Shown: positions 1,126 to 58,247 of the stretch, one piece after another | Position numbering within the stretch: position 1 is the first letter of the stretch | Layout of the letters: each line of letters begins with the position of its first letter | IMG/VR virus record: IMGVR_UViG_3300037137_001341 | Location: 1 to 64,000 of that record | DNA: 64,000 bases | Reading direction: 5' to 3' (one strand) | From: a virus | Translations under genes and position numbers: made by a program | Notes under the pieces: model-generated | What the model saw: the letters and a program-made list of their open reading frames with translations, nothing else | What the model was told of the DNA's origin: nothing | Databases searched by the model: none

Positions 1126-1281
1126 CGGAACCGCAACCGATCGTTCACTGGTGCGTGTTCGAGCTTGCGTTCCGCGACAAGGAGGTCGAGCGGCTCGCCC
1201 TGGGTAGCGCGCTCGTCGAAAAGTTTGGGGTGCAGCCGTGAAGCACGGATGTACGGCAATCTTTCGGAGGCCCGCTCACCT

Positions 1282-1533
1282 ATGACCGAACAAGAGAGAG
1301 CGGACGTGCAGATGCTCCTGGATGCGCTCCCGCGTTGCTGGCCTGGGAACGGAGGGCGCTGTAATGAGGTTGCTGTGCGGTCGCATCCTGGGCCGGTGAT
1401 CGGTGAGCGGACGCTGCGGTGTGCAGGGCATCCGGGTGAGGAGGAAAACGAGTTCGAGGAAACCGCGTCTCCAACACGCTGGGCCTCCGTGGTCGAGCGG
1501 TTTGTAACTCAAGGATTCAGGAGTTCACGATGA
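1282..1533 (+). CDS. Hypothetical protein
   Basis: ORF in a translationally coupled run; start uncertain (1249 or 1282). Confidence 0.5.
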   Translation: MTEQERADVQMLLDALPRCWPGNGGRCNEVAVRSHPGPVIGERTLRCAGHPGEEENEFEETASPTRWASVVERFVTQGFRSSR

Positions 1534-1721
1534 TGAAGGAGCCGAAGTGCATCACCGCACGTGACGTCACCGAGGCGTTCGAGAACGGTCGGAAGGCCGC
1601 CTTCGTCGCTGCCATTGAGGAGTGCCAGGCGTACTCGAAGAGCACGCAGTCGGAGGAGGCCAAGGCCGTCGCGATGAACCTCGCGGTGAGGATCACGCAG
1701 AGGGCGAAGAAGGGAACATAG
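1530..1721 (+). CDS. Hypothetical protein
   Basis: AGGAG SD, ATGA overlap. Confidence 0.55.
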   Translation: MMKEPKCITARDVTEAFENGRKAAFVAAIEECQAYSKSTQSEEAKAVAMNLAVRITQRAKKGT

Positions 1722-1723
1722 CC

Positions 1724-2089
1724 ATGGGGATCTGGGGAACAGGACCGTTCGACAACGACGGCGCGGCCGAGACGGTCGCGAAGTTGATGGAGCCGTGTCG
1801 CAAGATCAGTGCGGCCACGAGCAACCGGGAGGCGCAGAACTATTACGCCGAGGCGCGTGTCGGCATCCAGGTGCGCCTGCTCGCGAATGAAACCGACATC
1901 CTCGGAGGCACATCCCTGCAGCTTGGTCTCGATGCGCTGCAACACATGCGGGCCGACAAGGCATGGATCTCCTTCTGGAAGGAGCCGAAGGGGATCGCGG
2001 CGGCGCTGGACAAGGAGATCGCAGCGGTGAAGCTGGCGATGAAACCGAAGAGCGCACGTCGCGTGACGAGAAAGAAGAGGGCGAAGTGA
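1724..2089 (+). CDS. DUF4259-like protein
   Basis: N-terminal MGIWGTGPFDNDGAAE matches the MGxWGxGxFDND signature. Confidence 0.7.
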   Translation: MGIWGTGPFDNDGAAETVAKLMEPCRKISAATSNREAQNYYAEARVGIQVRLLANETDILGGTSLQLGLDALQHMRADKAWISFWKEPKGIAAALDKEIAAVKLAMKPKSARRVTRKKRAK

Positions 2090-2364
2090 CGCACAAGATC
2101 GGCAGCGTGGTCGTTATCTCGGACGAGCCGGACACGGCCTGCTCGCGCTGCGGGCACAAGAAGGAGTGCCGCGACGTGCTCGGCAACGGAACCAGGATCT
2201 GTTTCGGCTGCGCAACGTCGGCTGAGAAGGAAGCGTACGGACGTCGGATGTTCGGGTCGCCTTCCACCGGCTTGCGCGAGACATCCGACCGTCTCTTCGA
2301 TGGCCTGAATGAGAAGGAGAAGGAACTCGTCAAACGTAGGTTCGCCAAGAGGGAGGGGAAGTAA
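2086..2364 (+). CDS. Zn-finger hypothetical protein
   Basis: CSRC...C...CFGC; GTGA overlap. Confidence 0.6.
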   Translation: MTHKIGSVVVISDEPDTACSRCGHKKECRDVLGNGTRICFGCATSAEKEAYGRRMFGSPSTGLRETSDRLFDGLNEKEKELVKRRFAKREGK

Positions 2365-3135
2365 ATGAGCAGCACTGGACGAGGCAGCGAACGCGAACCC
2401 GAGGACCAGTACTTCACGCGCTACCCGCTCGCGCTCGCGATCTGCGAACGGCTGAAGGCGGACGGCGTTATCACGAGCCCGTCGGTGATGATGGAGCCGA
2501 GCGCTGGGGCCGGCGCGTTCGTCAGCGCGATGGCGCAGACGTGGGAGCCACGCACGTTCTACGCGAATGACATGGACTGCACGCTGATGCTTCCCGAACA
2601 CTGGGAGAGAGCGCGACTGCGCATCGAGGCCGCGCATCCTGGCAGGACGCTACCGGACGGGCGACTGATCGCGCTGGAGGGGAACTTCTCGGACCTGGAG
2701 ACCTCGACCGTGCCGGGGATTCAGGCCGTGGTCGGCAACCCGCCGTACAAGCACGCCGAGGCACATATTCGCCACGCGATCTCGCTGCTAGCGCCCGGCG
2801 GCGCGGTGGCGTTCCTGCTCCCGGTGAACTTCCTCTCGGGCATCAAGCGCGTCGGTTCGCTCTACCAGCTGCACCCGCCCGAGTACGTGTACGTGCTCGA
2901 CAAGCGACCGCAGTTCATGGAGGGCTACCGGATCAACAAGCACGGCAAGCGCGTGAAGAAGGGGACCGACTCGAACGAGTACGGCATGTTCGTGTGGCGC
3001 AAAGAGCGTCCCGAGTTTGAGCCAGTGATCCGGTGGCTTCAGTGGTCGAAGTACTTGTTGCGCTTCAAGAACAAGGTCGAGAGGATCGAGATCGTCGGAA
3101 CGCAGGAAGTTGACGCAACCGACTCAGCTGGCTAG
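2365..3135 (+). CDS. Orphan amino-DNA methyltransferase (probably N6-adenine)
   Basis: Motif I EPSAGAGAF and motif IV GNPPY; no adjacent restriction enzyme recognised. Confidence 0.85.
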   Translation: MSSTGRGSEREPEDQYFTRYPLALAICERLKADGVITSPSVMMEPSAGAGAFVSAMAQTWEPRTFYANDMDCTLMLPEHWERARLRIEAAHPGRTLPDGRLIALEGNFSDLETSTVPGIQAVVGNPPYKHAEAHIRHAISLLAPGGAVAFLLPVNFLSGIKRVGSLYQLHPPEYVYVLDKRPQFMEGYRINKHGKRVKKGTDSNEYGMFVWRKERPEFEPVIRWLQWSKYLLRFKNKVERIEIVGTQEVDATDSAG

Positions 3136-3146
3136 GTTCGGTCAAC

Positions 3147-3914
3147 ATGAAGACAGTCGTCATAGCTGCGTGGCTAGCTGCCGAGCTAGCGCATCTGCCA
3201 GGCTCACGCGCCCCCGGGGAAACACGCGAGGAGTACGTCGAGCGCGCGGGTCAGATCGCCACGGCGCTGGCCGAGGAAGCGACGCCGTACGCCAACGGCA
3301 CAGGCTGGACGTCGACCGAGCTTGCCGCCGCGGGAGCCGTGATCTGGTACAGCGAGACACTGCTCGACAAGCGCATCCAGGCGGGCGAGCAGCACCCGCT
3401 CTGGAACCAGGACCACGGGCTCGCGCGCTGTGGCATGCAGCTTCACTCATCGGGGCTTGTGCCGCAGGACGTGTGGGAGAAACTCGTTGGCCACGGGTCT
3501 GACTCGACGCACCTGTGCGCGCAGTACGGGTTGCGCGTCATCGTGGCCCAGGCGAAGCAGTGCGGGGTCTTTCTCGGCGTACGTGCCGACCGCAACCGCG
3601 TTGCGAAGACCTTCGCGAGCTACGCTAGCGGCGGGAAGTGCGTGCCGTCGGATCGGGACTGGCAGCGCGCCGACCTGTGGTTGAAGATGATGGCGAAGCG
3701 CCCGGACCACGAGAAGAAGGTGCTGCCTGGGTACCGACGAGTGGGGCCAGCGGAGGTTCCGTCGAAGGTGAGACAGGAAGCGGAGATCGTGGTCGCGAAC
3801 CTGGGCCCCGGCGGCTACACGACGGGGGCGCGGTTCCCGATGGATAAGTGGATGCTCCTCGTCGAGAAGCACGCCGAGGGCAAAGTCGGCGTCAGCGTGT
3901 TCGTGAGGGAGTAG
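3147..3914 (+). CDS. Hypothetical secreted/envelope protein
   Basis: 255-aa ORF with short hydrophobic N-terminus and paired Cys. Confidence 0.6.
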   Translation: MKTVVIAAWLAAELAHLPGSRAPGETREEYVERAGQIATALAEEATPYANGTGWTSTELAAAGAVIWYSETLLDKRIQAGEQHPLWNQDHGLARCGMQLHSSGLVPQDVWEKLVGHGSDSTHLCAQYGLRVIVAQAKQCGVFLGVRADRNRVAKTFASYASGGKCVPSDRDWQRADLWLKMMAKRPDHEKKVLPGYRRVGPAEVPSKVRQEAEIVVANLGPGGYTTGARFPMDKWMLLVEKHAEGKVGVSVFVRE

Positions 3915-3922
3915 GTTTCACC

Positions 3923-4171
3923 ATGGCGCTCGGAATCGACTCGTACATCGAGAAGGCCCGCGAGGAGCTTAAGATGAAGAGCCTTCGGGTGATCCAGGTC
4001 GAGACGGCGCTGGCGTGGTGCGGTCGCGCGTGCGCCGCGCAGGAGATGGGCTTCGACGTGGACGCGACCGAGTACGGGCACGAGGCCATCGAGCACGCGG
4101 CGCTGAGCGGCTTCGATGATCTTCTCACGGACGTTCGAGATGCGCTCGAAGCGCACGGGGTGGCCACATGA
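3923..4171 (+). CDS. Hypothetical protein
   Basis: Coupled ORF MALGIDSY... Confidence 0.6.
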   Translation: MALGIDSYIEKAREELKMKSLRVIQVETALAWCGRACAAQEMGFDVDATEYGHEAIEHAALSGFDDLLTDVRDALEAHGVAT

Positions 4172-4871: not shown

Positions 4872-5384
4872 ATGTTCGACATGCCTCCGAACCTGTTCGA
4901 CAACGTCGCGCACGCCCACAGGCCCGATGCTTCCGGTCCACCGGCACATGATCAGGTAGCTGGCATGGGTGCGAGCCCGGACGGTCTCGGCGCCTACGCT
5001 CGGCCTGTTGCCGGCACGGGGGAGTACTTCCAGCCCGCCGCGGGCATGGGCGCGTTCGCCAGACCCGTCCACGGGATGAACGGCGAGATCCAGTTCCTGG
5101 AACCGCCCGACGCTTCCCCTGCCGCCGCGATGCGCTCGGCGGGCATCACGGCGCTCGTCGCCGCGGTCGCCTTCGGGAGCGGGCTCGCGCTCGGCGGCGC
5201 GTGGGGCGGCGTCTCCGGGATCATGCTTTCGGGCTCCGCGTTCAACGTGTACCGCGCCCAGAAGTGGTGGGGTTCGCCCAACGCGAGCGAGAAGCACGAA
5301 GCCGTCGTGAGCGCGATGTTCTCGGCCATCGGCATCGCTGCAGGTGGCTACGCCGCCTACAAAGCCTACGAAGCGAAGAAGTAG
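4872..5384 (+). CDS. Membrane protein with GMG/GLG repeats, putative virion membrane protein
   Basis: AGMGA, DGLGAY, AGMGAF followed by about three hydrophobic helices. Confidence 0.7.
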   Translation: MFDMPPNLFDNVAHAHRPDASGPPAHDQVAGMGASPDGLGAYARPVAGTGEYFQPAAGMGAFARPVHGMNGEIQFLEPPDASPAAAMRSAGITALVAAVAFGSGLALGGAWGGVSGIMLSGSAFNVYRAQKWWGSPNASEKHEAVVSAMFSAIGIAAGGYAAYKAYEAKK

Positions 5385-5398
5385 AGGAGGAGCACGCG

Positions 5399-6265
5399 AT
5401 GGCAGGCGACGCAGCCCCGTCCGGGGCAACGATGGTCGACGCGCAGTTCACGAACGTGCGCGTCCTCAAGCCCTTCGAGGACTTCGAGCGCAGGTACCAG
5501 GGGAAGCCTGCGTTCACGCCCATCGCGTTCCCGGGCGTGCGCGACCAGCGGGCTCAAAACGAGGAGCCCGGCTACGATCCGAATCTGGAGAGGGGCATCG
5601 CGGTCCCGCAAGGTGCTCGCGTGGTCCTGCAGATCCCGATCTGCTTCTCGCGTGGGCCCGTGTTTCCGTTTCCCACGTTCACGACGTACAGCTACCGCCT
5701 AGTCTGGCGCTACCAGAACCTCGGGAGCTTCCGAAACCCGGCGGTGAAGTCTCGCCGTGCGCCGTACCACTTCCCGCGCCAGAGCCCCGGCGCCCCGGAT
5801 ACCACCCTCGGTCCGCCTGTGCCGCGCGTGACGCTTCCGGCCTCCTGGCACGTGACCGAGTACGAGCAACCGGAGCCACCGGGAGGTAACGCCGGGAACG
5901 TCATCCTGCGGGTCCAGCTGATCACGCCGAGCATCGGCGACTTCCGGCTGTTCGTGCCGCCGATCTTGCCAGACGGACAGCCCGGCGTCATTCAGCAAGG
6001 CGTCACGGATCCGTTCACTGCTTCAGGCGGCCAGATGCCGATCTATGCGACGTTCGAGACTCGCGCCGCCGGTGACGAACTGATCGTCCTGGCGAACCGC
6101 TCGGATGCGTTCCCGACGATGGGGCCGCTTGCTGCGCCGTGGGACTTCACGAGCAACTCTCCCGACGGGGACCTGCCCTTCTCGAACATCTACGGCACCG
6201 GCAACGGCGCCCACCCCGCGTTCAGGGACGTCGGCATCTACCTGCAGACCGGCACGGCTCCCTGA
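5399..6265 (+). CDS. Pro-rich beta-type protein, possible structural protein
   Basis: GAGGAGG SD; 288 aa; no recognised motif. Confidence 0.65.
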   Translation: MAGDAAPSGATMVDAQFTNVRVLKPFEDFERRYQGKPAFTPIAFPGVRDQRAQNEEPGYDPNLERGIAVPQGARVVLQIPICFSRGPVFPFPTFTTYSYRLVWRYQNLGSFRNPAVKSRRAPYHFPRQSPGAPDTTLGPPVPRVTLPASWHVTEYEQPEPPGGNAGNVILRVQLITPSIGDFRLFVPPILPDGQPGVIQQGVTDPFTASGGQMPIYATFETRAAGDELIVLANRSDAFPTMGPLAAPWDFTSNSPDGDLPFSNIYGTGNGAHPAFRDVGIYLQTGTAP

Positions 6266-7698: not shown

Positions 7699-8864
7699 CG
7701 TCCTGCGTCGATGTCCGAGATCAGCGGCCCCATCACTTCCCAGAGCGCGCCGTGGTTCGCTGTGGTCGCCGTGCGGCCGAGCGTCTCCCAGAGCATCCAC
7801 TGCGCCCTCGCGAACGGCATCGGCCACTTCTCGTCGAAGAACTCGGTCCCTCGGAGTTTGTCTTCGAGGCCGCGGTATGTGTCCAGTGCGAGCCGGGTCA
7901 CGCCGCGGGCTCCCTTTGCTCCCGACCTGGCAGACGCGCGTCGTTCGTATTGAAGCCTTGCCGGTGAAGCGCCGACGAGCTTCACCGGGGCCTCCTCCTC
8001 GCCGCCAGCTTCCTCTTCTTCGAGGGCGCCGAACTGGAAGGATGTGTCCCCCGTCTCCTCTTCGTACTCGCCGAAGAAGTGCCGCTGGATGCGCGTGTCG
8101 AGGCACGCTGCGTCGCGGCCAATGAGCATCATCGTGAAGGAAATCTTCGCGAGCCCGAGCCCTCGTGGCGCCCATTCGATCGCGATGTTGTTGCGGAATC
8201 CGCGCGAGTAGTCCCGCGACTGAGCCTGGGAGGCGACCCACGGCGCCCACTCGAAGATGTCGAGGTACGACGGGATGTCATCCCAGGCGTACTCGCCGCG
8301 ACGCTTGCCCTTTTTGCGCAGGCGCACGGCGCGCGTGTCCTTGATGCCCTTGAACTGGAGCAGCTGCGCTTCGCTCGGAGGCTTGTCCCGCAGGAGGGCG
8401 TCCCGGATCCTTGGGCCGAACGTGCGGAACAGGCGCTCGGCCTCCTCGATCGGACGCTGGATGCTGTTTCTCGCGAAGATGGCGCCGAGCGCGACCGTGC
8501 GCCAGTCCGCAGCGACGCCCTCGCGCCAGCGACGGATGATCTCCCAGGCGTGCGGGTACCCGCTTGGGAACATCTCGGCGTCCTTCACATGCCGGGGCCG
8601 GAGCATGATCACCTCGGCCTCGTTGGCCACGAGGCGCTCGGGCTCGCCGAGTAAGTGCGTCGAGACCGGCGAGTGGATCAGTGTAGGGCGCGTCGCCGGG
8701 AGCATCGCGCCGGTCTCGGTGCTGATGACGCCGAAGCAGTCGTCGGGGTGAACGATCATCGTGCCGAAGATCGGGTCGGCGACCGTGATGGAGTCGTCTC
8801 GGATGTCCTCCAGGTAGCCGACGCTCCCAAAGCCTTCCGGGTGCACGTAGGGCGTGGCGTACAT
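7695..8864 (-). CDS. Protein with HhH DNA-glycosylase-like motif
   Basis: RGLGLAKISFTMMLIGRDAACLDTRI resembles HhH plus the catalytic Lys/Asp region of Ogg-type glycosylases. Confidence 0.5.
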   Translation of the reverse strand: MYATPYVHPEGFGSVGYLEDIRDDSITVADPIFGTMIVHPDDCFGVISTETGAMLPATRPTLIHSPVSTHLLGEPERLVANEAEVIMLRPRHVKDAEMFPSGYPHAWEIIRRWREGVAADWRTVALGAIFARNSIQRPIEEAERLFRTFGPRIRDALLRDKPPSEAQLLQFKGIKDTRAVRLRKKGKRRGEYAWDDIPSYLDIFEWAPWVASQAQSRDYSRGFRNNIAIEWAPRGLGLAKISFTMMLIGRDAACLDTRIQRHFFGEYEEETGDTSFQFGALEEEEAGGEEEAPVKLVGASPARLQYERRASARSGAKGARGVTRLALDTYRGLEDKLRGTEFFDEKWPMPFARAQWMLWETLGRTATTANHGALWEVMGPLISDIDAGR

Positions 8865-8867
8865 GCC

Positions 8868-9119
8868 CTAGTACCTACCAGGGGCACTGGGCAATCGTCC
8901 ACGGCCCGGCTGCTCGTCGAGAGCTTCGATGACGGCGACGCGCGTGGACAGTTTGCCGACGTCCTCCTTGATCCCGTCGATGCCGCCCCGCAGGCGCTGT
9001 TCCGAGGCGAGGATCTCTTTGCGCAAGACCTGCTCGCTCTTGAAGTAGAAGACGAGCATCGAGACGATCATCCCGAGGATCGTGAGCCCCATCTGCAGCC
9101 ATATGTCTGGGGACAACAT
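8868..9119 (-). CDS. Single-TM coiled-coil protein (holin/XhlA-like architecture)
   Basis: N-terminal TM followed by heptad ...LSTRVAVIEA. Confidence 0.6.
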   Translation of the reverse strand: MLSPDIWLQMGLTILGMIVSMLVFYFKSEQVLRKEILASEQRLRGGIDGIKEDVGKLSTRVAVIEALDEQPGRGRLPSAPGRY

Positions 9120-9135
9120 TATGCTTCTCCTGCTC

Positions 9136-9432
9136 TCACCGGAACCGGAGGGCGTTCATGGCGCGCCGTCTGGCCTCGCAGGGCGTGCAGTTCGGGTCGA
9201 TGCCGACCGCCCGAGCGACCGGCTTCGCGACGGCGGCGAAGGCGTCACCGAGTCGCATGGAACCTCGGGGGGCCTGGTGGACGCGGTGGGCAGCGGCAAA
9301 GCTCTGGAGGGCGGGCAGATTGCCCACATTCCGGTCGCCGCAGACATCACAGTTGAAGGCGTAGCCCCCGAACGAGCCGTCCGGGTACGTGTGGACCAGG
9401 ACCCAGGGGATTTCCGCTGAGAACTTCTGCAT
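9136..9432 (-). CDS. Phage hypothetical protein with Zn finger
   Basis: CDVC...H..H; LGDAFAAVAKP...CTPCEARRRAMN motif of a type seen in phage ORFs. Confidence 0.6.
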   Translation of the reverse strand: MQKFSAEIPWVLVHTYPDGSFGGYAFNCDVCGDRNVGNLPALQSFAAAHRVHQAPRGSMRLGDAFAAVAKPVARAVGIDPNCTPCEARRRAMNALRFR

Positions 9433-9492
9433 CCTGGGGCACATGTTGCCGCAGCTTCCTCCGGGCGACAAGTCCTGGTAGCATGTGCCCCG

Positions 9493-10071
9493 ATGAGCAC
9501 GGCACCGTACGTTCTGGGCGGCATCGCTGGTTTGGCGCTCGTGAAGGCGCTGTTTCGGCCGTACAGGGCCGTCGTGCGTGAGGGCGGCGTGGCAGCATGT
9601 CCCGGACCCAACCGGTACAAGGTCTGCGATCCGAGCCTCGCCATCGACGCCCCCGCGGGGACGGCCGTCTTCGCGACGGCGGGGGGCAGGATCGCCGTCA
9701 TCGGGGACCGGTTCCTGCACATCGCGACCCACGACGAGCCCGTGGTGCTGATGTACGACGGCGTCGTGCCCTCCGTGCAGGAGGGGCAGTACGTGGGCCG
9801 TGGTCAGCAGATCGGCCAGTCCATGGGCCGCGTGTACTTCAGCGTCACGCAGTTCACGCCCGGTAGCGGGATCTTGAGGATCGACCCATCTTCGTGGCTC
9901 GCGTCGCGTGGACAGAAGATCGCGGCGAGGTACACGGGGGCCGGGTCGGAGTGGTGCGAGCAGGGGAGGAACATCGCGGTTCCGGCGGGCGCTGGCACCC
10001 CCTGCAGCCTGTACGAGCCCGAGAAGAGCGGCTTCGCGCTCTTGCCGGTGACCGTCAGCGTGGAGCGATAG
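9493..10071 (+). CDS. Membrane-anchored LytM/M23-fold protein, probably catalytically degenerate
   Basis: IDAPAGTAVFATAGGRI, VQEGQYVGRGQQIG, IDP; HxH motif absent; N-terminal TM. Confidence 0.65.
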   Translation: MSTAPYVLGGIAGLALVKALFRPYRAVVREGGVAACPGPNRYKVCDPSLAIDAPAGTAVFATAGGRIAVIGDRFLHIATHDEPVVLMYDGVVPSVQEGQYVGRGQQIGQSMGRVYFSVTQFTPGSGILRIDPSSWLASRGQKIAARYTGAGSEWCEQGRNIAVPAGAGTPCSLYEPEKSGFALLPVTVSVER

Positions 10072-10105
10072 GCACGTATCGCGGTACGGAACATAGGAAG
10101 AACAC

Positions 10106-11212
10106 ATGTCAAACTACGGCGCAGTAAAGATCAATTCCGCAGCCTCGCTCATCACCAAGGTCGTACAGAGCGCTGAAGCGCCGGACCTGCAGGACAAGGT
10201 CACGGCGGCCATCGCTGCGATTCCGGCGACACACGCAGTCATCGGGATCACGCTCGCCGGAGCGGGCGACGGGCACACGTTCACGGTCACGATCGAGGCC
10301 GGGAAGATCACGGACCTGATCTCGGGCGGCTTCACCGCCGCGCCTCCGACGGTCAGCTGCTACCTCGCCAGCGACGCGGAGCAGCTGGCGATTGTCGAGG
10401 CAACGGCGACGCCGACGTCAGGGATCGTGTCGGACGTGCAGGTCGCGGGCTCGTCGAAGGGCACGCGCTTCATGGGGTTGATCACGCAGGGCGCCATCTC
10501 CACTGGCGGCATCGAGGATCACAAGGTCATCGTCGACATGGCCGACGGGACACCGGACTTCCTGTTCCCGAAGCTCAAAGCTGGGCCAGGCATCACGCTC
10601 GCCGTCGTGGGCCCGGTGGCCAACGAGCAGGTCGAGATCAGCGCGCCATCAACCGAGGATCACAAGGTTCTCGTGGACGGCGCCGACACGACACCGGACT
10701 TCCTGTTCCCGAAGCTCGTCGCGGGAACGGGCATCGTGCTCGCCGTAGTGGGCGCCGGGAACGAGCAGGTCGAGATCAAGAGCACGGACAAGACCTACTA
10801 CGCCGACAACGGGTCCATGGACATCGCCATTCCTCTGGCGCCTCCGGGCACGGCCGTAACGGTCGTGTCCGTGCCGGGCGTGGTCGTAGCGGCAGGACAG
10901 AAGCTCATCATCCACGCGAGCGCGTATTTCTCCGCCATCACCGGCGGCACCGGTCCTATTTTCTTCGCGGTCTTCGCCAGTTCTGGGGGACCTGACGTGC
11001 CCATCGACGGCGTCGGGCAAACGGCTACTGCCGGCGCTCAGGAAGTAATCACGCGCGTATTCGCGGATCTCGCCCCTGCTGCCGGAACGTACACAATCAA
11101 GATCAAGGCCAACGTCGCCGCAGGGCTTACCGGCGCTACGGTCGTCGGTACGCCTCCAGGAACAGGACTGTTCCCAGGCGGCCGGTTGACCGTGCAAGTT
11201 CTCGGCGCGTGA
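10106..11212 (+). CDS. Spike/fibre-like protein with N-terminal GDGHTF-family domain
   Basis: AGAGDGHTF...AGSSKGTRFMG, two copies of DHKV.VD.AD.TPDFLFPKL.AG.GI, beta-rich C-terminal domain. Confidence 0.7.
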   Translation: MSNYGAVKINSAASLITKVVQSAEAPDLQDKVTAAIAAIPATHAVIGITLAGAGDGHTFTVTIEAGKITDLISGGFTAAPPTVSCYLASDAEQLAIVEATATPTSGIVSDVQVAGSSKGTRFMGLITQGAISTGGIEDHKVIVDMADGTPDFLFPKLKAGPGITLAVVGPVANEQVEISAPSTEDHKVLVDGADTTPDFLFPKLVAGTGIVLAVVGAGNEQVEIKSTDKTYYADNGSMDIAIPLAPPGTAVTVVSVPGVVVAAGQKLIIHASAYFSAITGGTGPIFFAVFASSGGPDVPIDGVGQTATAGAQEVITRVFADLAPAAGTYTIKIKANVAAGLTGATVVGTPPGTGLFPGGRLTVQVLGA

Positions 11213-11889
11213 TGCACCCGTTCGATCCGCAGTGGAAGTTCGTGCAGTCCACGAACTTTCAGCGGGTCGACCCCGCGAAGCCCCGCGCTGTGACGCTCCT
11301 CGTGTGTCACTCGATGGAAGCGCCCGACAAGCCGAACACCGCGGAGAACGTAGCTGCCTGGTTCGCGAGCGAGAAGTCGCCAGAGGCGTCGGCACATGCC
11401 TGCGTGGATTCGGACTCGATCGTGACGTGCGTGATGCCGCAGGACATCTCGTGGTCGTGCTCGGGCGGCAACTGGCTCTCGTACGGCGTCGAGTTCGCCG
11501 GCTACGCCAAGTGGCTCGACGCCGACTGGGAGTCGGATACGAACATGGCCATGCTGAAGCTCGGCGCGGCGCACATGGCGAAGGCCGCAGCGTACTTCGG
11601 CATCCCAGCACAGATCCCCAGCGAGGCGGAGGTCGCCGAGTGCCTCCGGGACGCCTGCATCCGGCAGGGCAAGCTCAAGGGGGAGCTATCCGGGAACGTG
11701 GGCGGCGTCACGACACATGCCGTCGTGAACGCGGCCTGGAAGAACTGGGCGAAGTACGGGCTGCCGCAGCCTGGGCCGAAGGTAGACCTGTCACATACAG
11801 ATCCAGGGAAAGGCTTCCCGCTCGACGCGCTCGTCGAGATGATGCAGCCGTCCATGGTAGACACGGAACCCCCACCGGAGGCAGCATAG
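11212..11889 (+). CDS. N-acetylmuramoyl-L-alanine amidase (Amidase_2)
   Basis: LVCHSME, SAHACVD, GVEFAG, TTH, HTDPG zinc/catalytic motifs. Confidence 0.85.
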   Translation: MHPFDPQWKFVQSTNFQRVDPAKPRAVTLLVCHSMEAPDKPNTAENVAAWFASEKSPEASAHACVDSDSIVTCVMPQDISWSCSGGNWLSYGVEFAGYAKWLDADWESDTNMAMLKLGAAHMAKAAAYFGIPAQIPSEAEVAECLRDACIRQGKLKGELSGNVGGVTTHAVVNAAWKNWAKYGLPQPGPKVDLSHTDPGKGFPLDALVEMMQPSMVDTEPPPEAA

Positions 11890-11893
11890 GCAC

Positions 11894-12409
11894 ATGTCGA
11901 TCAGCACGTTCGTTCTCTCCCCACCGGGCTTCAACCAGAACACGATCACCCGCTTCGTGCAGTCCTCCGAGCCGGGTGACATCGAGGCCGGCATCGAGGC
12001 CGCGGTCGCCGAGATCGTTGCGTTGAACAACAACACTATCACGCCCGTGAACGACAAGTACGGCATCGCCGCGCTGGATCTCGCTGGCGGCGGCGACGGG
12101 CACACGTTCGTTGTGCAGATCACGTTCACGACGAACCTAGCGAACACGCTCTACTCGCTGGTCTACGGGACGCCGCCATCGACGCTGCTCGATCAGGGAG
12201 GGAACCCCCCGCAGCCGTTTCATGCCGGTGCGTACCTCGCGTCCGAGGAGGAGGCGCTCGCCATCGCGCAGCAGGCGACGTACGACCGGCTCCGGGCGCT
12301 CGATCCGGCTCCGGGCAAGCGGTTCACGGTGTTCGGCAACGCCTTCGCTGGCGCGGCGAAAGGCACCCGCTTCATGGGTGTCGTGATCGGCTTCTCGGGG
12401 AGCGTCTGA
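11894..12409 (+). CDS. Stand-alone GDGHTF-family paralog
   Basis: LAGGGDGHTF...AGAAKGTRFMG. Confidence 0.75.
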   Translation: MSISTFVLSPPGFNQNTITRFVQSSEPGDIEAGIEAAVAEIVALNNNTITPVNDKYGIAALDLAGGGDGHTFVVQITFTTNLANTLYSLVYGTPPSTLLDQGGNPPQPFHAGAYLASEEEALAIAQQATYDRLRALDPAPGKRFTVFGNAFAGAAKGTRFMGVVIGFSGSV

Positions 12410-12411
12410 AC

Positions 12412-12906
12412 ATGCCGACGACGAGGGGGGCCACCAAGGCGGACGCGAGGTACTACGTCTTCGAGATGTCGGTACGTGATCGGAGGCAGCCTCTCCGGCA
12501 GGTGAACAAGTCGCCGCTGCCGCTGGAGAAGGCGAAGCAGCTTGCCCGCATCGGCGCTCAGAAGGGCAAGCACGACCGGGCGGTGACGACGAGCCCGACG
12601 TCGCCACGCGGCTTCAAGATCGTGGCGCAGTACGCTGCTGGGGTCGGCAAGGACGTGGCCATCATGTACCGACGCGGCTCCGGTGGCGGCGCGAGGCGCA
12701 AGAAGGTCACGCGGAACGCGGCGGAGCCTGCGATGGAGCCGAACGCGCCGGAGCCGCGCACCGAGAGCCTGGTCGTGCAGCCGCGCGCCCGCGAGGTCGA
12801 GGTCACTGAGGCGCCGTGGCAGGCGCGGATGGAGCCGAACGAGCCGGCACATGACGAGCTTCCCTACGAAGACGAGGACGGTTCTCCGCTCGTCGATACG
12901 GATTGA
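12412..12906 (+). CDS. Basic N-domain/acidic tail protein with RNA/EPN motifs
   Basis: VTRNAA, MEPNAP and MEPNEP in the tail. Confidence 0.6.
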   Translation: MPTTRGATKADARYYVFEMSVRDRRQPLRQVNKSPLPLEKAKQLARIGAQKGKHDRAVTTSPTSPRGFKIVAQYAAGVGKDVAIMYRRGSGGGARRKKVTRNAAEPAMEPNAPEPRTESLVVQPRAREVEVTEAPWQARMEPNEPAHDELPYEDEDGSPLVDTD

Positions 12907-13418
12907 TCGTGGCAAAGGGCCTCACGCCCTGGATGGAGCAGAAGGTCGCCGACCTTCTCGCGTACGGCAGAAGCATCGGCATCAACGCTCGCGTCTCTGA
13001 AGGCTTCAGGACGTGCGCCCGGCAGAACGCCATCTACGCGGGCGGGACCAGCACCGCGACGGGCGTGAGCGGGTGCCATTCCTGGCACGTCTGGGGCCGC
13101 GCCGCGGACCTGCTCATCGACGGCGGTACCCGCGCCGACTACGCCGCCCTGGCGGCCGAGTGGAAGCGCTGGGGCGGGATCTGGGGAGGGGACTGGGTCT
13201 CCCCCGCGGACGACATCGGGCACTTCGAGTGGCACCCGGACATCCCGGACATCCACGACCTGTGCCCCCGCGGGGCGGGCGCGGAGGCATGTCCTGACCC
13301 GAGCGTGCCCTGGCCCGAGGACCGGCCGCTGCTGGAGAGGCCCGGTGTGAAGCTCGCGGGGGGCCTGATCCTGGCCGGTGGCGGCTTGGCTCTGGCATAT
13401 GTTCTGGCGAGACGGTAG
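12903..13418 (+). CDS. M15 family L-Ala-D-Glu peptidase with C-terminal membrane anchor
   Basis: EGFRT..RQ, SWHVWGRAAD, WGGDW, DIGHFE; C-terminal TM followed by RR. Confidence 0.85.
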   Translation: MIVAKGLTPWMEQKVADLLAYGRSIGINARVSEGFRTCARQNAIYAGGTSTATGVSGCHSWHVWGRAADLLIDGGTRADYAALAAEWKRWGGIWGGDWVSPADDIGHFEWHPDIPDIHDLCPRGAGAEACPDPSVPWPEDRPLLERPGVKLAGGLILAGGGLALAYVLARR

Positions 13419-13508
13419 GCTGGGGCCTGTCCTGCCGCGCCTCTGCCGGTGGGAGTCTCGTCTCGGTTGCCCGCGCCTCTCGCCGGGCAGGAAAAGGAAG
13501 CCACAGCT

Positions 13509-14087
13509 ATGACCATCTCGCTCATCAACTACAACGTCGGCCAGACCGGCCGCGGCATCCCCGACTACCTCGTTCGCCAGATCCAGGCGGGCGATGCAGA
13601 GACGATGGAAGCGAAGGCTGCTGCGGACAGCGCTGCCGTCTTCGCACTCAACGGGCCGTTGTCCACGGACGACCAGTGGACGCCGGCCGATGCGAACCTC
13701 GCCGGTGGCGGCGACGGGCACACGTTCGTGTTCACGGTGACGTACGTCCGGCGCAAGCTGAACACCGCGGTCCCGCGGCTCGCGGCGTTCGTTGGCAACC
13801 TGCTGAGCCACGCGAACAACGCGGGGTCGCTCGACTACCCGCTGCCGCCCGCCACGAACGTGCTCATCACCCCAACCTTCGTCCCCGGCCCCGAGTACTT
13901 CGTCTCGAAGTTCTGCCTCGCGTCCGCAGAGCAAGAGATCGCGGGCGCGTTCAACGACATGGTCGTCCGCGCGATTGCCGCCACGGACAACGACAACGCA
14001 CCATCCTTCTGGCAGCAGCTGGCGGGCGCCGCGAAGGGCACTCGCTTCATGGGCGGCGTCACCGTCTTCAAGTTCCCGAACGGCTGA
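13509..14087 (+). CDS. Stand-alone GDGHTF-family paralog
   Basis: LAGGGDGHTF...AGAAKGTRFMG; AAGGAAG SD. Confidence 0.75.
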   Translation: MTISLINYNVGQTGRGIPDYLVRQIQAGDAETMEAKAAADSAAVFALNGPLSTDDQWTPADANLAGGGDGHTFVFTVTYVRRKLNTAVPRLAAFVGNLLSHANNAGSLDYPLPPATNVLITPTFVPGPEYFVSKFCLASAEQEIAGAFNDMVVRAIAATDNDNAPSFWQQLAGAAKGTRFMGGVTVFKFPNG

Positions 14088-14100
14088 AAGGCTCACGCAC

Positions 14101-14547
14101 ATGTTCCTCAATGACCCACTGGTTCCAACCGGCGGCATCCTCCTCTACGAGTACATCCAGTCGGCCGATGCCACTGGCATGGAGGCCGCGTTCACGGCAG
14201 CCATCGCTGCCATCGTCGCGGCGAACGCGAAGCCGCTGGCGCCGCAGCTGAATGTGGTCGACGTCGACATCGCCGGTGGCGGCGACGGCCACACGTTCGT
14301 GGTCCGCTTCCTGCTGAGCACGGCGCCGGCCGCACTCAGCTGGACTCCGACGGTTCTCCCGAAAGTCCGCGGTCGCTTCTGGATGGGCTCCGACGCGGAA
14401 GCGCTGGAGGCCTATCAGGAGGCGGCGATTGCGTCGCTCCGCAGCGGCACGACCCAGATCGACAAGATCGCGGTCGGCCTCGCTGGCGCGGCCAAGGGCA
14501 CCCGCTTCATGGCGTTCATCGCGGCAGAGGCCGTCCTCCCCACGTAG
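14101..14547 (+). CDS. Stand-alone GDGHTF-family paralog
   Basis: IAGGGDGHTF...AGAAKGTRFMA. Confidence 0.75.
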   Translation: MFLNDPLVPTGGILLYEYIQSADATGMEAAFTAAIAAIVAANAKPLAPQLNVVDVDIAGGGDGHTFVVRFLLSTAPAALSWTPTVLPKVRGRFWMGSDAEALEAYQEAAIASLRSGTTQIDKIAVGLAGAAKGTRFMAFIAAEAVLPT

Positions 14548-14554
14548 CGGTTAG

Positions 14555-14622
14555 GCACCGCCTGCCTCGCGCTACGCGCCCGAGAGGGGGTAACGGGCGG
14601 GCTGCACAGAAGCAGGCGGTGC
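14555..14622. terminator. Nested inverted repeat between convergent genes
   Basis: GCACCGCCTGC/GCAGGCGGTGC 11-bp stem enclosing CGCCCG/CGGGCG; no U-tract. Confidence 0.45.
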
Positions 14623-14634
14623 ACCCTCACTCTA

Positions 14635-14967
14635 CTACAACAGGCGCAGCGAGAGCCATACGGTCCGCCCATGTAGGCGGGCAAGCTCCTTGACGTACCT
14701 GCCGTCCTTCGGCGCGGAGGACAGCGGCAGGATGAACTCCCGGCCGTACAGGTGCTCCTGGAGCATGAGCGCCTCGGCCTCGGGATGCAGGGCTGTCACG
14801 CGGCACCGGATCCCGACGACCTCCTGCGCCTGACGCTTCCGCCGCGCTGACCGCATCGCGCGAGGGCGTACACGGAGGAGCAGCACATGGTCGGCCGGCT
14901 TCTTCTTCGGCTTGGCCTTGCGGCGCTTCACCGTCTTCGCTGGCGCCTTCCGTCGCGTCGCCGTCAC
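14635..14967 (-). CDS. Basic hypothetical protein
   Basis: Lys/Arg-rich N-terminus; overlaps the stop of the upstream gene. Confidence 0.55.
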   Translation of the reverse strand: MTATRRKAPAKTVKRRKAKPKKKPADHVLLLRVRPRAMRSARRKRQAQEVVGIRCRVTALHPEAEALMLQEHLYGREFILPLSSAPKDGRYVKELARLHGRTVWLSLRLL

Positions 14968-15176
14968 GGACGCTTCTCTTTGGCCCGCTCGATGAGCGCG
15001 ATCACGGTGCCCTGGATCGTGCCCCGTTCCCCTGCCGAAATCTGCGTCGCGGTCATGCGCCGGAGCTTCTTGTACAAGTCGGGAGGGATCCGCAGGAACA
15101 TGCCCCTGCGGCCTCGTGACATGCCGGGGGTGGACGCGGTGGACTTCTTCTTGGTGGCGCTGGCTTGTGAAGGCAC
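14964..15176 (-). CDS. Ribbon-helix-helix (Arc-like) DNA-binding protein
   Basis: GMFLRIPPDLYKKLRR...TIQGTVIALIE; probable GTG start 7 nt below TG-C-TAGCCT. Confidence 0.6.
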   Translation of the reverse strand: MPSQASATKKKSTASTPGMSRGRRGMFLRIPPDLYKKLRRMTATQISAGERGTIQGTVIALIERAKEKRP

Positions 15177-15526: not shown

Positions 15527-16096
15527 TCATGTGAGCCACTGCCAGATCGCTCCTGCCCATCCTGCGTAGCCCGCTGCGTTCGGGTGCAGGTGGTCCGGCG
15601 AGCGAGGGATCTCCAGGTTCTCGCTCTCGAAGTAGTACGGCACGTTCGCCCGGATCATGTCCGCCACGCCCTGGCGAGGAAACGGGAGAGCCGGCGGCCC
15701 GATCCAGACGATCTCGGCGCCGGTCGCGTGCAGCTTGTCGAGGAGCCTCGCGAGGTGCGGCGCCTCCCGGTCCACGGCGCCGGGGGATGTGGCCTCGTCG
15801 TTGGTCCCGAGCGAGACCAGGATCATGTTCGGCTGGAACGCCACCAGCGTCTCGTCGAGCCAGAGGTCTGTGTCCCACTGGTTGATCCGGGTGCCGACGA
15901 TCCCCTTGCCGACATATGCCTCGACGCCGGCCTCGGCCGCTAGCTGCTTGAACTGCGGGTTCAGGCCGACCGCCAGGCTGTCCCCGAACAGCAAGAGCCG
16001 GGTCTTGCTCGTGATCTTGGGCCGCCGCGTCGCGAGGGCGGCGAGCCCGACACCGGACGCGATCAGGAGTCCCCCCAGGAGCCACCGCTTGTCCAT
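15527..16096 (-). CDS. SGNH/GDSL hydrolase with N-terminal membrane anchor
   Basis: GDSL, G, GTND and DHLHP blocks. Confidence 0.85.
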   Translation of the reverse strand: MDKRWLLGGLLIASGVGLAALATRRPKITSKTRLLLFGDSLAVGLNPQFKQLAAEAGVEAYVGKGIVGTRINQWDTDLWLDETLVAFQPNMILVSLGTNDEATSPGAVDREAPHLARLLDKLHATGAEIVWIGPPALPFPRQGVADMIRANVPYYFESENLEIPRSPDHLHPNAAGYAGWAGAIWQWLT

Positions 16097-16144
16097 CGAC
16101 CCGGGATGGTAGCACGTGGGGACATGTTCTAGAATCCGGCCAGG

Positions 16145-16804
16145 ATGGCCTTCTCGAACGCCTGCGGCGGCCTGCGGTGGGACATGCAGGCGGACGGCCT
16201 CATCGCCGTGGAGGGCCAGGGCACCCCCGCGTTCGAGCCGGGGAGCATCCACTACAGGCAGATGGAGCAGACCTGGGCGAACTGGTCCGGGCTGATCCTG
16301 GACGCCGCAAGCGCGCACAAGGTCCCCCCGTCATGGATCCTCGCGGTGATGACCGAGGAGACGGGGCTCTGGAGCCCGAACGCGGAGGAGCAGGCGTCGA
16401 AGGTGTCGGGGGCGGGCGCTCGGGGGCTCATGCAGATCATGCCGGCGACAGCGCGCGGCTTCGGCGCGGACCCGGACCAGATGTACGACCCCGCGGCGAA
16501 CATCGAGGTAGGGGCCGCGCTGCTAGCCAAGCTAGCCAAGCTCCGGGACGGCCAGCTGCCGGAGATGGCGGCGGCCTACAATTCTGGAAGCGTCTGCTCG
16601 CCCGGTCGGAATCAGTGGAACCTCGCGATGGCCGACGACTACGCGGGGAATGTGATCCGGTGGAACAACGCTGCCGTCATGTACCTGGACATGAGCCCGC
16701 GACGGGGGAAGATGCTAGCCGGGCTAGCCATCGGTGCTGCGGGGCTGTACGCTGCTGCGGTGATCGCTGGGTTCGCGATGATGCCGAGGTGGTTGAGGCG
16801 ATGA
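16145..16804 (+). CDS. SLT lytic transglycosylase with C-terminal membrane anchor
   Basis: AVMTEET, GARGLMQIMPAT, AAYNSG; C-terminal TM followed by RR. Confidence 0.9.
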   Translation: MAFSNACGGLRWDMQADGLIAVEGQGTPAFEPGSIHYRQMEQTWANWSGLILDAASAHKVPPSWILAVMTEETGLWSPNAEEQASKVSGAGARGLMQIMPATARGFGADPDQMYDPAANIEVGAALLAKLAKLRDGQLPEMAAAYNSGSVCSPGRNQWNLAMADDYAGNVIRWNNAAVMYLDMSPRRGKMLAGLAIGAAGLYAAAVIAGFAMMPRWLRR

Positions 16805-17497: not shown

Positions 17498-18832
17498 GTG
17501 ACCTACGACTACGAGCCCAACGCTCCGATCGACCGCCTCCGCTGGGTGGCGAAGACGTACGAGCACATGCCGGTGGTCGCGTGGGAGACGATCCGGGTCG
17601 CGCTGAACACTCTCGGTGTTGAGCTTCTCCAGCAGGAGAACGCGCTCTTCGATGGCACCGATGGCACCTGGGGCGTAGCCGCATCCTCGCGGGAGATGCA
17701 CTGGCGCAACGAGTTCGGGTTCGAGCGAGGTATCCGTGGCGCTCTGACGGCGAGACGGATCTCCGAGCTACTTACGATGCTTGAGCCGGAGCTTCCGCCG
17801 GATTCCGAATACGACTTCCTCTTTCCGTGGGTCGCCGCGCAGCTAGGACCGATCGCGAAGCGGACGCAGCGCGCCTGGAAACAGGAGCAGGAGGGTCGCA
17901 TCACGCATCCTCACGCGATGCACTGGTACGACGAGGCACCGATTTTCACAGCCATCGCGGAGGCGCTCACGCGGCGCGGCACCGCCATCGCTCAGTGGGC
18001 GCTCGCGAATCACATCGATCTCGGTAGGGTGACGGCCGCCGAGGCGATCGAAGCAGCGAAGAACTTCAAGGTCGTCGTCCGTGTGCCGCAAGGCCCAGTC
18101 GTCTACGAGTACGGCGACGGCTGGACCGTGCAGGAGCTTCCGCCGGAGGCGCTCGAAGCCGAGGGTAAGGTGATGCAGCACTGCGTAGGGACGTACTGCG
18201 AGCAGGTGCGCAGAGGAGACACCGTGATCTACAGCCTTCGCGATCCACAGGGGCAGCCGCACGTGACCATGGAGTTTCTGCCCGCAAGCGGTCGGTTCGA
18301 GCAGATTTACGGCAAGCAGAACGAGAGGCCGAAGCCGGAGTACGAGGCTCGGGTACGTGCGTTCATCCGTGACAAGTTCGACGCGGCTCCCGCGGCGATG
18401 CTCATGGCGGGTGCAGATCCGAAGAGTTTGGATCTGCGCGGCGCGTACCTGCGCGATGCGAACCTGCGCGATGCGAACCTGCGCGATGCGAACCTGCGCG
18501 AAGCGGACCTCGGCCGCGCGACTTTGGCCGCCGCGAACCTGACCGGCGCGAATCTGAGCTACGCGAACCTGACCGCCGCGAACCTGACCGGCGCGAACCT
18601 GAGCTACGCGAACCTGACCGGCGCGAACCTGAGCTACGCGAACCTGACCGGCGCGAACCTGAGCCGCGCGAACCTGACCGGCGCGAACCTGACCGGCGCG
18701 AACCTGAGCTACGCGAACCTGACCGGCGCGAACCTGAGCTACGCGAACCTGACCGGCGCGAACCTGAGCTACGCGAACCTGACCGGCGCGAACCTGCGCG
18801 GCGCAAACACCGAAGGAGCCGTCGGGCTGTGA
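17498..18832 (+). CDS. PcfJ-domain protein with C-terminal pentapeptide repeats
   Basis: EGKVMQHCVG.Y, IYSLRD, QIYGKQN; then about 25 ANLxx repeats. Confidence 0.85.
   Translation: MTYDYEPNAPIDRLRWVAKTYEHMPVVAWETIRVALNTLGVELLQQENALFDGTDGTWGVAASSREMHWRNEFGFERGIRGALTARRISELLTMLEPELPPDSEYDFLFPWVAAQLGPIAKRTQRAWKQEQEGRITHPHAMHWYDEAPIFTAIAEALTRRGTAIAQWALANHIDLGRVTAAEAIEAAKNFKVVVRVPQGPVVYEYGDGWTVQELPPEALEAEGKVMQHCVGTYCEQVRRGDTVIYSLRDPQGQPHVTMEFLPASGRFEQIYGKQNERPKPEYEARVRAFIRDKFDAAPAAMLMAGADPKSLDLRGAYLRDANLRDANLRDANLREADLGRATLAAANLTGANLSYANLTAANLTGANLSYANLTGANLSYANLTGANLSRANLTGANLTGANLSYANLTGANLSYANLTGANLSYANLTGANLRGANTEGAVGL
18432..18810 (+). repeat. 15-bp coding tandem repeats (pentapeptide)
   Basis: GCGAACCTGACCGGC / GCGAACCTGAGCTAC / GCGAACCTGCGCGAT units. 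Confidence 0.9.
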
Positions 18833-19011
18833 CCTACGAGTACCAGTGCACCGATCCCGCGTGCCACCACGAGTGGGAGGCCGAGCAGAAGATCACGGCG
18901 GCTCCTCTGCGCACATGCCCGAAGTGTGCGAAGGCGACGGCGAAGCGCCTGATCTCGAAGAGCGCGTTCGTGCTGAACGGCGAAGGCTGGTTCAAGAGCG
19001 GGGGGTACTGA
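18829..19011 (+). CDS. FmdB-family zinc ribbon protein
   Basis: YEYQC...C.H.WE..Q.IT..PL..CPKC...RLIS..F.L.G.GW. Confidence 0.85.
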   Translation: MTYEYQCTDPACHHEWEAEQKITAAPLRTCPKCAKATAKRLISKSAFVLNGEGWFKSGGY

Positions 19012-20597
19012 TGTACGAGCCGAACGCCTCCGAGGTACATGCCCGGTCGGTCGCGCTGATGCGCTTCCTGTCCGCCGTCGCGCGCCACGCGCATGTGGCC
19101 GAGCACGTGTACGTCGTGGGAGGAGCCGTCAGGAACTACGTCCTGGGCGAGCCCATCAAGGACATTGACGTTGTCGTGGACAGCATCGGAGCGCGTCACG
19201 ACTCCGAGTGGTTCGCTCGTCGGATCGCGACCGAGATCCCGACGTCCACGAACCTCACGACGAACCAGTACGGCGTCGCGATCCTGACCATCAAGGGCGA
19301 CTGGTCCCTCGACGGCCACCCGATGCAGGGCGAGGTCATGGAGATCGCGAACGCCCGCGCCGAGTCCTACGGAGGCGGCGGCCAGGGGTACAAGCCCACG
19401 GACGTGCGCCCTGCGACCATTGAGGAGGACGTGTACCGGCGCGAGTTCACGTTCAACACGCTGCTCTGGCGGCTCTCCGATCTCGCCGACGGTCCAGACG
19501 GCGCTCCGATCATCGACATCACCGGGCGGGGGCTGATCGATCTGGAGAACCGGCAGATCCGCACGCCGTCGCCCGCGGACCAGACCTTCTCGGACGACCC
19601 GACGCGCATGCTCCGGGCGGTGAAGTTCGCGCTCCGGTACGGCTTCGAGATCCCCTCCGAGGTCGTCGAGTCCATCCGACGGAACGCCGGCACGCTACGG
19701 GATGTGCCCTGGGAGCCGGTGACAGCGCTCCTGGTGAACAACGTCCTGCGCATGGAGAACGCGCTCGACGGGCTCCCGATGCTCGCCCAGTTGGGCCTGC
19801 TCGACGTCCTCGTGGACATCACGCGACAGGGGCCGGCACGGGCCTACCTGAGCCGGCAGATGAAGGAGGAGCGCCGCCCCCAGCTTCTGGTGCTCATGCT
19901 CGACGCCGGCTTCGACCTGGACATCCCCGTCGCCAAGCTCACCCCGGAGCAGCGGGAGCGCCTCCTGGCGGTCACGGGGGACATGACAGACGCAGACGCG
20001 GGGGCCTTTCTGACAGCCGTCGAGAGGCCCCCGGTGGACAACATGCGGGTCATCTCGACGCTGGGCCTCAAGCCGCACGACAGGGGCCTCATCGGGCCGC
20101 TGGCGCGCGAGGCGCTGCTCGGCCACCCATCGCTCGCCGACGATCCGATGGAATTAACACGGCGCGTCATCGGGTCCTGGCCGGGTCTGCAGCGGAACGC
20201 CGCGAAGAAAGTGGTCTATGCTGCCGTATTCCTTGAGGAATCCAGCCGCGAGGAGCTTCTGGCGTGGTGGTCGGAGCACGTAGGACATGTGCTCCTGCCG
20301 AAGCTGTACGCCCACCACATGACCATCGCCTTCAAGCCGAGCCCGGAGGTTCTTGGGCTCCTGCCTCTCGGGGCTCGCGTCCAGGTACATGTCGTGGGCT
20401 GGGGCGACGACGGGCAGGCGCAGGCGGTCGTGGTGCGGGCCAACATCCCGAGCGCGAACCCGGTGCCGCATGTGACGGTGGCGACGGCCGAGGGGGTCTC
20501 TCCGGCGCACTCGAACGCGCTGCTGTCAGAGCCGCCGTCCTGGGTCGTGGTGTACGACGGGCCGGTCCTACACGGCACCGTGGGGACGTTCCCATGA
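19011..20597 (+). CDS. CCA/poly(A) polymerase-family nucleotidyltransferase fused to a 2H phosphoesterase
   Basis: VVGGAVRN, DIDVV, EDVYRREFTFN, DDPTRMLRAVKF; C-terminal HMT and HVT motifs. Confidence 0.85.
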   Translation: MYEPNASEVHARSVALMRFLSAVARHAHVAEHVYVVGGAVRNYVLGEPIKDIDVVVDSIGARHDSEWFARRIATEIPTSTNLTTNQYGVAILTIKGDWSLDGHPMQGEVMEIANARAESYGGGGQGYKPTDVRPATIEEDVYRREFTFNTLLWRLSDLADGPDGAPIIDITGRGLIDLENRQIRTPSPADQTFSDDPTRMLRAVKFALRYGFEIPSEVVESIRRNAGTLRDVPWEPVTALLVNNVLRMENALDGLPMLAQLGLLDVLVDITRQGPARAYLSRQMKEERRPQLLVLMLDAGFDLDIPVAKLTPEQRERLLAVTGDMTDADAGAFLTAVERPPVDNMRVISTLGLKPHDRGLIGPLAREALLGHPSLADDPMELTRRVIGSWPGLQRNAAKKVVYAAVFLEESSREELLAWWSEHVGHVLLPKLYAHHMTIAFKPSPEVLGLLPLGARVQVHVVGWGDDGQAQAVVVRANIPSANPVPHVTVATAEGVSPAHSNALLSEPPSWVVVYDGPVLHGTVGTFP

Positions 20598-40396: not shown

Positions 40397-40404
40397 GAAT
40401 CTCC

Positions 40405-40439
40405 CCCGGCCACGGCGGCACCCAGCGGCCGTGGCCGGG
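40405..40439 (+). terminator. 12-bp GC hairpin between the ATPase and vWA genes
   Basis: CCCGGCCACGGC/GCCGTGGCCGGG; no U-tract. Confidence 0.4.
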
Positions 40440-40506
40440 CTACTCGGGTGACCGTGCCAACGGTACGATCTCCCGACTAGCCCGCTGCAACCCAAACGGA
40501 GGACAC

Positions 40507-47900: not shown

Positions 47901-47961
47901 GGGCGGCAGAGTACCCGAAAGCCGCTGGGACCGAAATAGGCTGGTCTGTTATCGTAACGGG

Positions 47962-58242: not shown

Positions 58243-58247
58243 CTCGC

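Follow-up and report, generated by a model that had tools for sequence, protein, structure and literature searches.

A conserved anchor that carries exchangeable receptor-binding parts is an already known principle of virus architecture. In the closest precedent, the heteropentameric penton of the tectivirus PR772 consists of three copies of P5, each with an N-terminal domain (residues 1-124), a collagen-like motif and a head, and two copies of the stand-alone protein P31 (126 amino acids, aa), and a module of ~125 aa is found both alone and at the N-terminus of a trimeric spike with a collagen motif (PMC6750898). Here we describe a domain family that has the same alone-plus-fused logic and that is encoded in a viral DNA stretch of 64,000 nucleotides (nt), hereafter the window, which comprises positions 1 to 64,000 of the IMG/VR record IMGVR_UViG_3300037137_001341. 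The fibre and tailspike anchors of tailed phages, such as the N-terminal domain of T7 gp17, the P22-type head-binding domain and those of the multi-spike Klebsiella phages, resemble this family in that mosaic, exchangeable trimeric parts at the C-terminus follow a conserved N-terminal module, and the multi-fibre systems among them likewise encode several such proteins per genome. The whole record (genome G000) is 116,237 bp long with an estimated completeness of 85% and a guanine-plus-cytosine (GC) content of ~66%; features beyond position 64,000 are given below in coordinates of this genome. We compared it with four near-complete relatives of 130-140 kb (G001 to G004).

The window encodes five members of the family, which align with one another across their first ~130-190 aa and share 15 invariant columns, including Q21, GxGDGHxF and AGxxKGxRxM. 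The first of two fibre proteins (10106-11212, plus strand; 368 aa) begins with the family N-domain (~10106-10510), continues with a tandem repeat whose unit is 47 aa long (141 nt x1.9, 82% identical, 10513-10778) and ends in a beta-rich head, within which residues 260-334 gave a weak PPC-like match (E 0.0017). Its ATG start at 10106 is backed by the family-conserved N-terminus MS(R/N)YG; one gene call on record begins upstream (414 aa). The second fibre protein (59185-61383, minus strand; 732 aa) has its N-domain at 60994-61383, followed by YadA-head-like SHAEG repeats (Pfam YadA_head, E 7e-6; phrog_25468, E 1e-72) and a C-terminal domain. The three remaining members stand alone, with lengths of 171 aa (11894-12409), 192 aa (13509-14087) and 148 aa (14101-14547, starting 13 nt downstream of the preceding gene), all on the plus strand. 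A preliminary description of this DNA had reported a shared domain in these five open reading frames (ORFs), with a repeat stalk and beta head in the first fibre and YadA-like repeats in the second, and all of this was borne out: a profile built from the five copies recovered each of them from the genome (E 9e-61 to 2e-46). That description had counted five members. The same profile found a sixth beyond the window (101185-101940, minus strand; 251 aa; E 1e-19), raising the genome total to six. Pairwise blastp among the six copies gave E-values from 1e-14 to 0.03, and the stand-alone copies (148-251 aa) align with the N-domains of the 368-aa and 732-aa fibres.

The domain was also described beforehand as unrecognised and as occurring both alone and at the N-terminus of different fibres, and searches of public data agree on both points. 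No Pfam or PHROG model matched the domain in the five window proteins, blastn and tblastn searches of 50,697 phage records returned zero matches, and the family profile matched nothing among PDB sequences at E ≤ 0.01. Against 1.84 billion cluster representatives, the profile matched 281 proteins at E ≤ 1e-3, 199 of them at E ≤ 1e-10. The domain was N-terminal in every one of 160 collected members, at an offset of at most 52 aa. Sixty-six of these 160 end within 15 residues of the domain and are thus stand-alone forms, while 74 extend more than 60 aa further, with C-termini that are unrelated or mosaic; 34 fused forms start with MSRYG(S/T). Among 89 longer members, Pfam recognised Collagen in seven, BclA_C in four, and YadA_head and SO2946-like_C in one each, and further long members have bodies that we judged by eye to be beta-helix-like. 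Collagen, BclA_C and YadA_head are modules of trimeric fibres. All 25 close fibre relatives listed with a source were metagenomic and either unnamed or annotated "hypothetical protein".

To place the copies relative to one another, we built a maximum-likelihood tree of 42 copies from the five genomes. Each relative yielded 8-10 profile matches, corresponding to 7-10 distinct genes after gene-level mapping; the second number is smaller because one G002 gene shows twice near the record ends. This is an identical 951-aa fibre gene at 1081-3936 and 121589-124444 of G002, probably reflecting terminal redundancy of the assembly and not two genes. The tree resolved four groups outside the fibres, namely group I (145-152 aa, with window copy 14101; approximate likelihood-ratio test (aLRT) 99), group II (167-251 aa, with the sixth copy; aLRT 97), group III (178-192 aa, with window copy 13509; aLRT 86) and group IV (282-298 aa; aLRT 93). 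Groups I, II and III have one member each in G000, G001, G003 and G004, and group IV has one member in each of the four relatives. The fibre clade (aLRT 92) holds 23 rows, 2-6 per genome, including window copy 10106, and the branches of window copies 11894 and 59185 arise close to the base of the clade formed by the fibres and group IV. For 21 members of at least 300 aa from the five genomes, the N-domain was alignable in all 210 pairs (median 54% identity over 129 aa). C-terminal similarity of any kind was found in 116 of these 210 pairs, and the fibre proteins are therefore mosaic.

The fold was modelled with AlphaFold2. Residues 1-137 of the 368-aa fibre, with an alignment of 138 sequences, gave a mean predicted local distance difference test score (pLDDT) of 95.5 and a predicted template modelling score (pTM) of 0.88. 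In this model the conserved MS.YG stretch forms short N-terminal strands and is followed by two beta-alpha-beta-beta units, the first made of strand 15-22, helix 25-37 and strands 43-52 and 59-67, and the second of strand 82-88, helix 91-101 and strands 108-115 and 122-128, giving two helices and eight main strands overall. A model of the 171-aa copy from a shallow alignment (pLDDT 73.5, pTM 0.74) likewise showed two beta-alpha-beta-beta units, which are separated by an insertion of ~25 aa modelled at low confidence. The halves of the family profile also align with each other by hhalign (Prob 90.7, P 1.3e-6, 45 columns), with AGxGDGHTF opposite AGxxKGTRF. Because the halves align in this way, the domain is an old tandem duplication, as the preliminary description had proposed from the letters.

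That description had further likened the family to the PRD1-type pair of P5 and P31. The architecture fits: module size and the occurrence of the module both alone and fused to a spike are shared (PMC6750898), a parallel of architecture. Sequence similarity between the two systems was absent from the Pfam and PHROG scans and from PDB sequences at E ≤ 0.01, among which PR772 chains were presumably included. The predicted fold does not fit the analogy. P31 is a jelly roll, whereas the domain described here is predicted to be alpha/beta, with its two beta-alpha-beta-beta units. The gene content differs too, since each genome of 130-140 kb here has 3-4 distinct conserved paralogs that stand alone, next to 2-6 alternative fibres. 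As for the tailed-phage anchors, no sequence or fold match to them was found by Pfam, PHROG, BFVD (at E ≤ 1e-3) or VIA-align, no tail genes are detectable in this lineage, and to our knowledge those systems do not keep several stand-alone anchor copies as conserved genes. New here are the domain family with its predicted fold, the occurrence of several conserved paralogs that stand alone, and the virus lineage in which they are encoded.

We consider it somewhat probable that the domain is a common module by which interchangeable trimeric fibres attach to the virion and that the stand-alone paralogs are its partner or filler subunits. This explanation fits best because the domain is invariably N-terminal and fused to trimeric-fibre modules, because several fibres per genome combine similar N-domains with mosaic C-termini, and because conserved adjacent genes encode fibre-less paralogs. 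The lineage-specific module of ~130 residues, with its two tandem units, would sit at the fibre N-terminus and allow different host-recognition proteins to dock at a single kind of site on the virion. The docked bodies would include collagen-like ones, BclA_C/C1q-like heads, YadA-head rolls and beta-helix-like forms, and such a shared docking site would explain why there are 2-6 fibre genes per genome with similar N-domains on mosaic C-termini. Stand-alone groups I, II and III and the ~290-aa group IV could then be fibre-less subunits that either co-assemble with fibre-bearing copies or form their socket, much as P31 does with the P5 N-domain. A broader version of this proposal is rather doubtful as a whole: that fibres are displayed by mixed fibre-bearing and fibre-less oligomers, comparable to the 3+2 penton of tectiviruses but of an unrelated alpha/beta fold, with several alternative, possibly glycosylated fibres per particle, and that the bacterial viruses concerned, with genomes of 130-140 kb, form a widespread and undescribed lineage in which genes for terminase, portal, HK97 capsid and tail are not detectable.

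The comparisons reported here establish the family, its architecture and orthologue groups, the fold model with its duplication, and the synteny; the presence of members in virions, their location there, their docking role and their hetero-oligomerisation are inferred. Several observations weigh against a role in virion attachment. Group II genes always follow a gene for a DnaB-like helicase and one for a 475-660-aa protein, a replication context, and the genes of groups I, III and IV keep a conserved place beside those of the amidase and M15 wall hydrolases, which could indicate a part in lysis and not in structure. No similarity to known virion proteins was found, the best solved match being the N-domain of a fungal enzyme (Z 5.5). 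Models from shallow and deep alignments were both searched with Foldseek against PDB and BFVD and with VIA-align against 48,161 chains; every match stayed below Z 6 (the typical best chance Z is 7-8 according to the tool notes), tail, capsid and penton proteins were not prominent, and BFVD gave no match at E ≤ 1e-3. Finally, Pfam and PHROG profiles recognise no gene for a capsid, portal or tail protein in these genomes, and the docking target therefore cannot be named. The best whole-domain rows in BFVD were proteins of T1-like phages, JK06 gp26 and a BECP10 "collagen-like protein", with weak query template modelling scores (TMq 0.41-0.47). JK06 gp26, whose gene lies between head genes of a T1-like phage, was dropped as a candidate relative since the structural likeness was too weak (TMq 0.41).

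If the attachment role is correct, a new protein fold family would be doing a familiar job, as the shared anchor of exchangeable receptor-binding fibres in a virus lineage that is common yet uncharacterised, and would provide a second, independent case of the tectivirus solution, in which fibre-less paralogs are mixed with fibre-bearing ones. The domain profile would then mark each candidate host-range determinant, 6-10 per genome, and it can serve to recognise the lineage in metagenomes. With a monomer model of such high confidence, multimer modelling and cryo-EM fitting should be straightforward.

We regard it as unlikely that the domain serves chiefly to nucleate the trimerisation or folding of the fibres from their N-terminus and that the stand-alone copies are decayed or regulatory remnants. 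All recognised C-terminal partners are trimer-forming modules, and a compact duplicated unit could, judging from the model and the duplication, yield a pseudo-sixfold trimer. However, collagen, YadA and BclA_C modules trimerise unaided, and the stand-alone copies are single-copy orthologues across genomes. Although they sit on long branches of the tree, their motifs are intact, and because they are conserved in this way they are not decaying remnants.

The gene neighbourhood bears on another explanation. On the plus strand of the window, a cluster runs in the order M23-like peptidase, 368-aa fibre, Amidase_2, 171-aa copy, protein X, M15 peptidase, group III copy and group I copy. The M23-like peptidase gene (9493-10071; Pfam Peptidase_M23, E 9e-6, under the curated cut-off) is 80-84% identical in relatives, where it also adjoins family members. 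Interleaved with the paralogs is a predicted N-acetylmuramoyl-L-alanine amidase (Amidase_2; 11209-11889; Pfam E 7e-10, PHROG endolysin E 1e-17), whose gene is syntenic in G001, G003 and G004. Next come protein X (12412-12906), a basic protein of 164 aa with no assigned function, and an M15-type peptidase of 171 aa (12903-13418; Pfam Peptidase_M15_4, E 1e-4; PHROG endolysin, E 3e-12), after which the group III gene follows in syntenic position; all four of these neighbours lie on the plus strand. The order Amidase_2, X, M15, III, I, IV is kept in G003 and G004, and in G001 as well, minus a mapped homologue of X. A scan of 8800-15000 for promoters and terminators gave nothing that exceeds the level of shuffled sequence.

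Given this arrangement, the stand-alone paralogs might instead be accessory binding or regulatory subunits of the adjoining lysis enzymes, as in multimeric endolysins, with the fibre-borne domain binding a shared ligand such as a glycan. The conserved order in three relatives speaks for such a role, as does the short length of the M23, amidase and M15 proteins, in which Pfam recognised no wall-binding domain; a fragment contig of the same lineage (L057, below) again has three stand-alone copies beside an M23 gene. Adjacency to hydrolases is weak evidence, however, because fibre genes followed directly by lysis genes are a common gene order in phages. Moreover, group II and most fibre copies are not near hydrolases, the paralogs have no predicted signal peptide or transmembrane segment, and known wall-binding modules are not among the fold matches listed. 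We find this explanation improbable.

Very improbable, in our view, is a non-structural, small-ligand-binding or enzymatic module resembling dodecin or BTRD1, with D, H, K and R residues that are conserved in its loops as a putative binding site: the whole domain superposes on the BTRD1 repeats of a polyglycine hydrolase (Z 5.5, root-mean-square deviation (rmsd) 3.6 Å, 96 residues) and the half-domains weakly on dodecins (Z ~3.2), the structure neighbours in ESM Atlas include clusters of DUF4177 and of BTRD1 (TM 0.5-0.6; BTRD1 0.49-0.53) and group II lies in a replication context, but every match is under the reliable range for fold identity, Pfam matched none of these families, His57 and Lys118 are each less than 90% conserved across the family, and the obligate N-terminal fusion to fibres would be left unexplained. 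The hydrolase in question is Fvan-cmp, whose N-domain (7tpu_A; BTRD1 repeats, PF17660) gave the best superposition of all (Z 5.5-5.9, rmsd 3.6 Å, 96-97 residues, both half-domains) and is also a tandem small alpha/beta repeat. It differs from the viral domain in that identity is 7-10%, with no Pfam match at E ≤ 1 and a Z-score under the level of common ancestry, and in that BTRD1 is an accessory domain of fungal or bacterial enzymes and is not viral. Dodecin (PF07311; ~68 aa) shares the beta-alpha-beta-beta element order with the half-domain (Z ~3.0-3.3, a weak match), and differs by the absence of a Pfam signal and by the covalent duplication of the unit here.

The fibre genes themselves have neighbours in common across genomes. 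In G000, G001 and G003, fibre-clade genes lie just past the last mapped gene of a conserved gene block, and the gene of the 732-aa fibre (59185-61383) adjoins homologues of a block conserved in relatives. Fibre-clade genes of G001 and G003 also lie beside glycosyltransferase genes and homologues of window 4872-6265, and an 868-aa neighbour in G001 has weak PHROG matches to "virion structural protein" and "tail protein". The position of the fibre genes relative to the block and these weak matches count in favour of the attachment role. At 56189-59717 of G001 (L031:16189-19714:+), two glycosyltransferase genes, one of which includes a fused methyltransferase-like region, adjoin the fibre cluster, as also in G003, and further glycosyltransferase genes were found at window 54094-55299 and genome 75880-77409. 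Glycosylation of the fibres is a possibility.

Searching the literature for an account of such a virus lineage brought up nothing relevant. Within IMG/VR, the domain family was found on 10 contigs, and further genes are shared with G000 by the four large genomes and by the five fragment contigs for which a gene-by-gene comparison was made. Direct terminal repeats are present in two of the four near-complete relatives, and the GC content of the lineage is 63-67%. Among 185,579 species genomes searched, there was one match, the 10.9-kb contig JBGPBZ010000081.1 (L057), which was binned in a Dehalococcoidia metagenome-assembled genome. This contig is a fragment of the same virus lineage, with four family copies and an M23 gene that three stand-alone copies adjoin. 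Its binning is either a weak hint of the host or an artefact.

We also looked for genes that would reveal the virion type. The Pfam models Terminase_6N, TerL_ATPase, FtsK_SpoIIIE, Phage_capsid and Phage_portal had no match above cut-off in the five genomes, PHROG and Pfam scans of 40 large ORFs gave no structural hallmark, and when PHROG matches were tallied for 94 ORFs of G001, none appeared among the best 25 of the 88 families. An 850-aa protein with two central hydrophobic segments could be tape-measure-like. A 259-aa protein (genome 72450-73229, minus strand; L007:8453-9229:-; 255-267 aa with its homologues) shares 81-86% identity with its counterparts in the four relatives and matches at least 747 clusters in public metagenomes, none of them named and none with a Pfam domain, which are 60-89% identical among the matches listed. 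It is a good lineage marker and a candidate capsid protein. It is flanked by proteins of 302 aa and 369 aa, for which conservation relative to G001 is 70-73%. Profiles of the two most conserved candidate capsid proteins had no match among PDB sequences, and ESM Atlas had none for the 369-aa candidate.

Several other genes of the window gave recognisable matches. The M15 peptidase has a C-terminal hydrophobic segment at residue 151, and an SGNH/GDSL hydrolase (15527-16318, minus strand) also has one hydrophobic segment; both proteins are conserved in relatives, and the single segment in each suggests that they are membrane-anchored, wall-active enzymes. On the plus strand, 17498-20597 encodes a 444-aa PcfJ-like and pentapeptide-repeat protein, followed by a 583-aa tRNA nucleotidyltransferase-like protein with a phosphodiesterase-like region at its C-terminus. 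At 39200-41673 (plus strand), a protein with a VWA domain comes after a MoxR-type AAA+ ATPase (bpMoxR, E 3e-33), and a 1451-aa protein (47881-52236, plus strand), 55% identical to its G001 counterpart, contains a tyrosine-recombinase (Phage_integrase) domain at residues ~488-557. The product of ORF 57746-58114 (minus strand) reads as GroES co-chaperonin-like, and the G001 tally includes phrog_3188 (GroES, E 3e-24).

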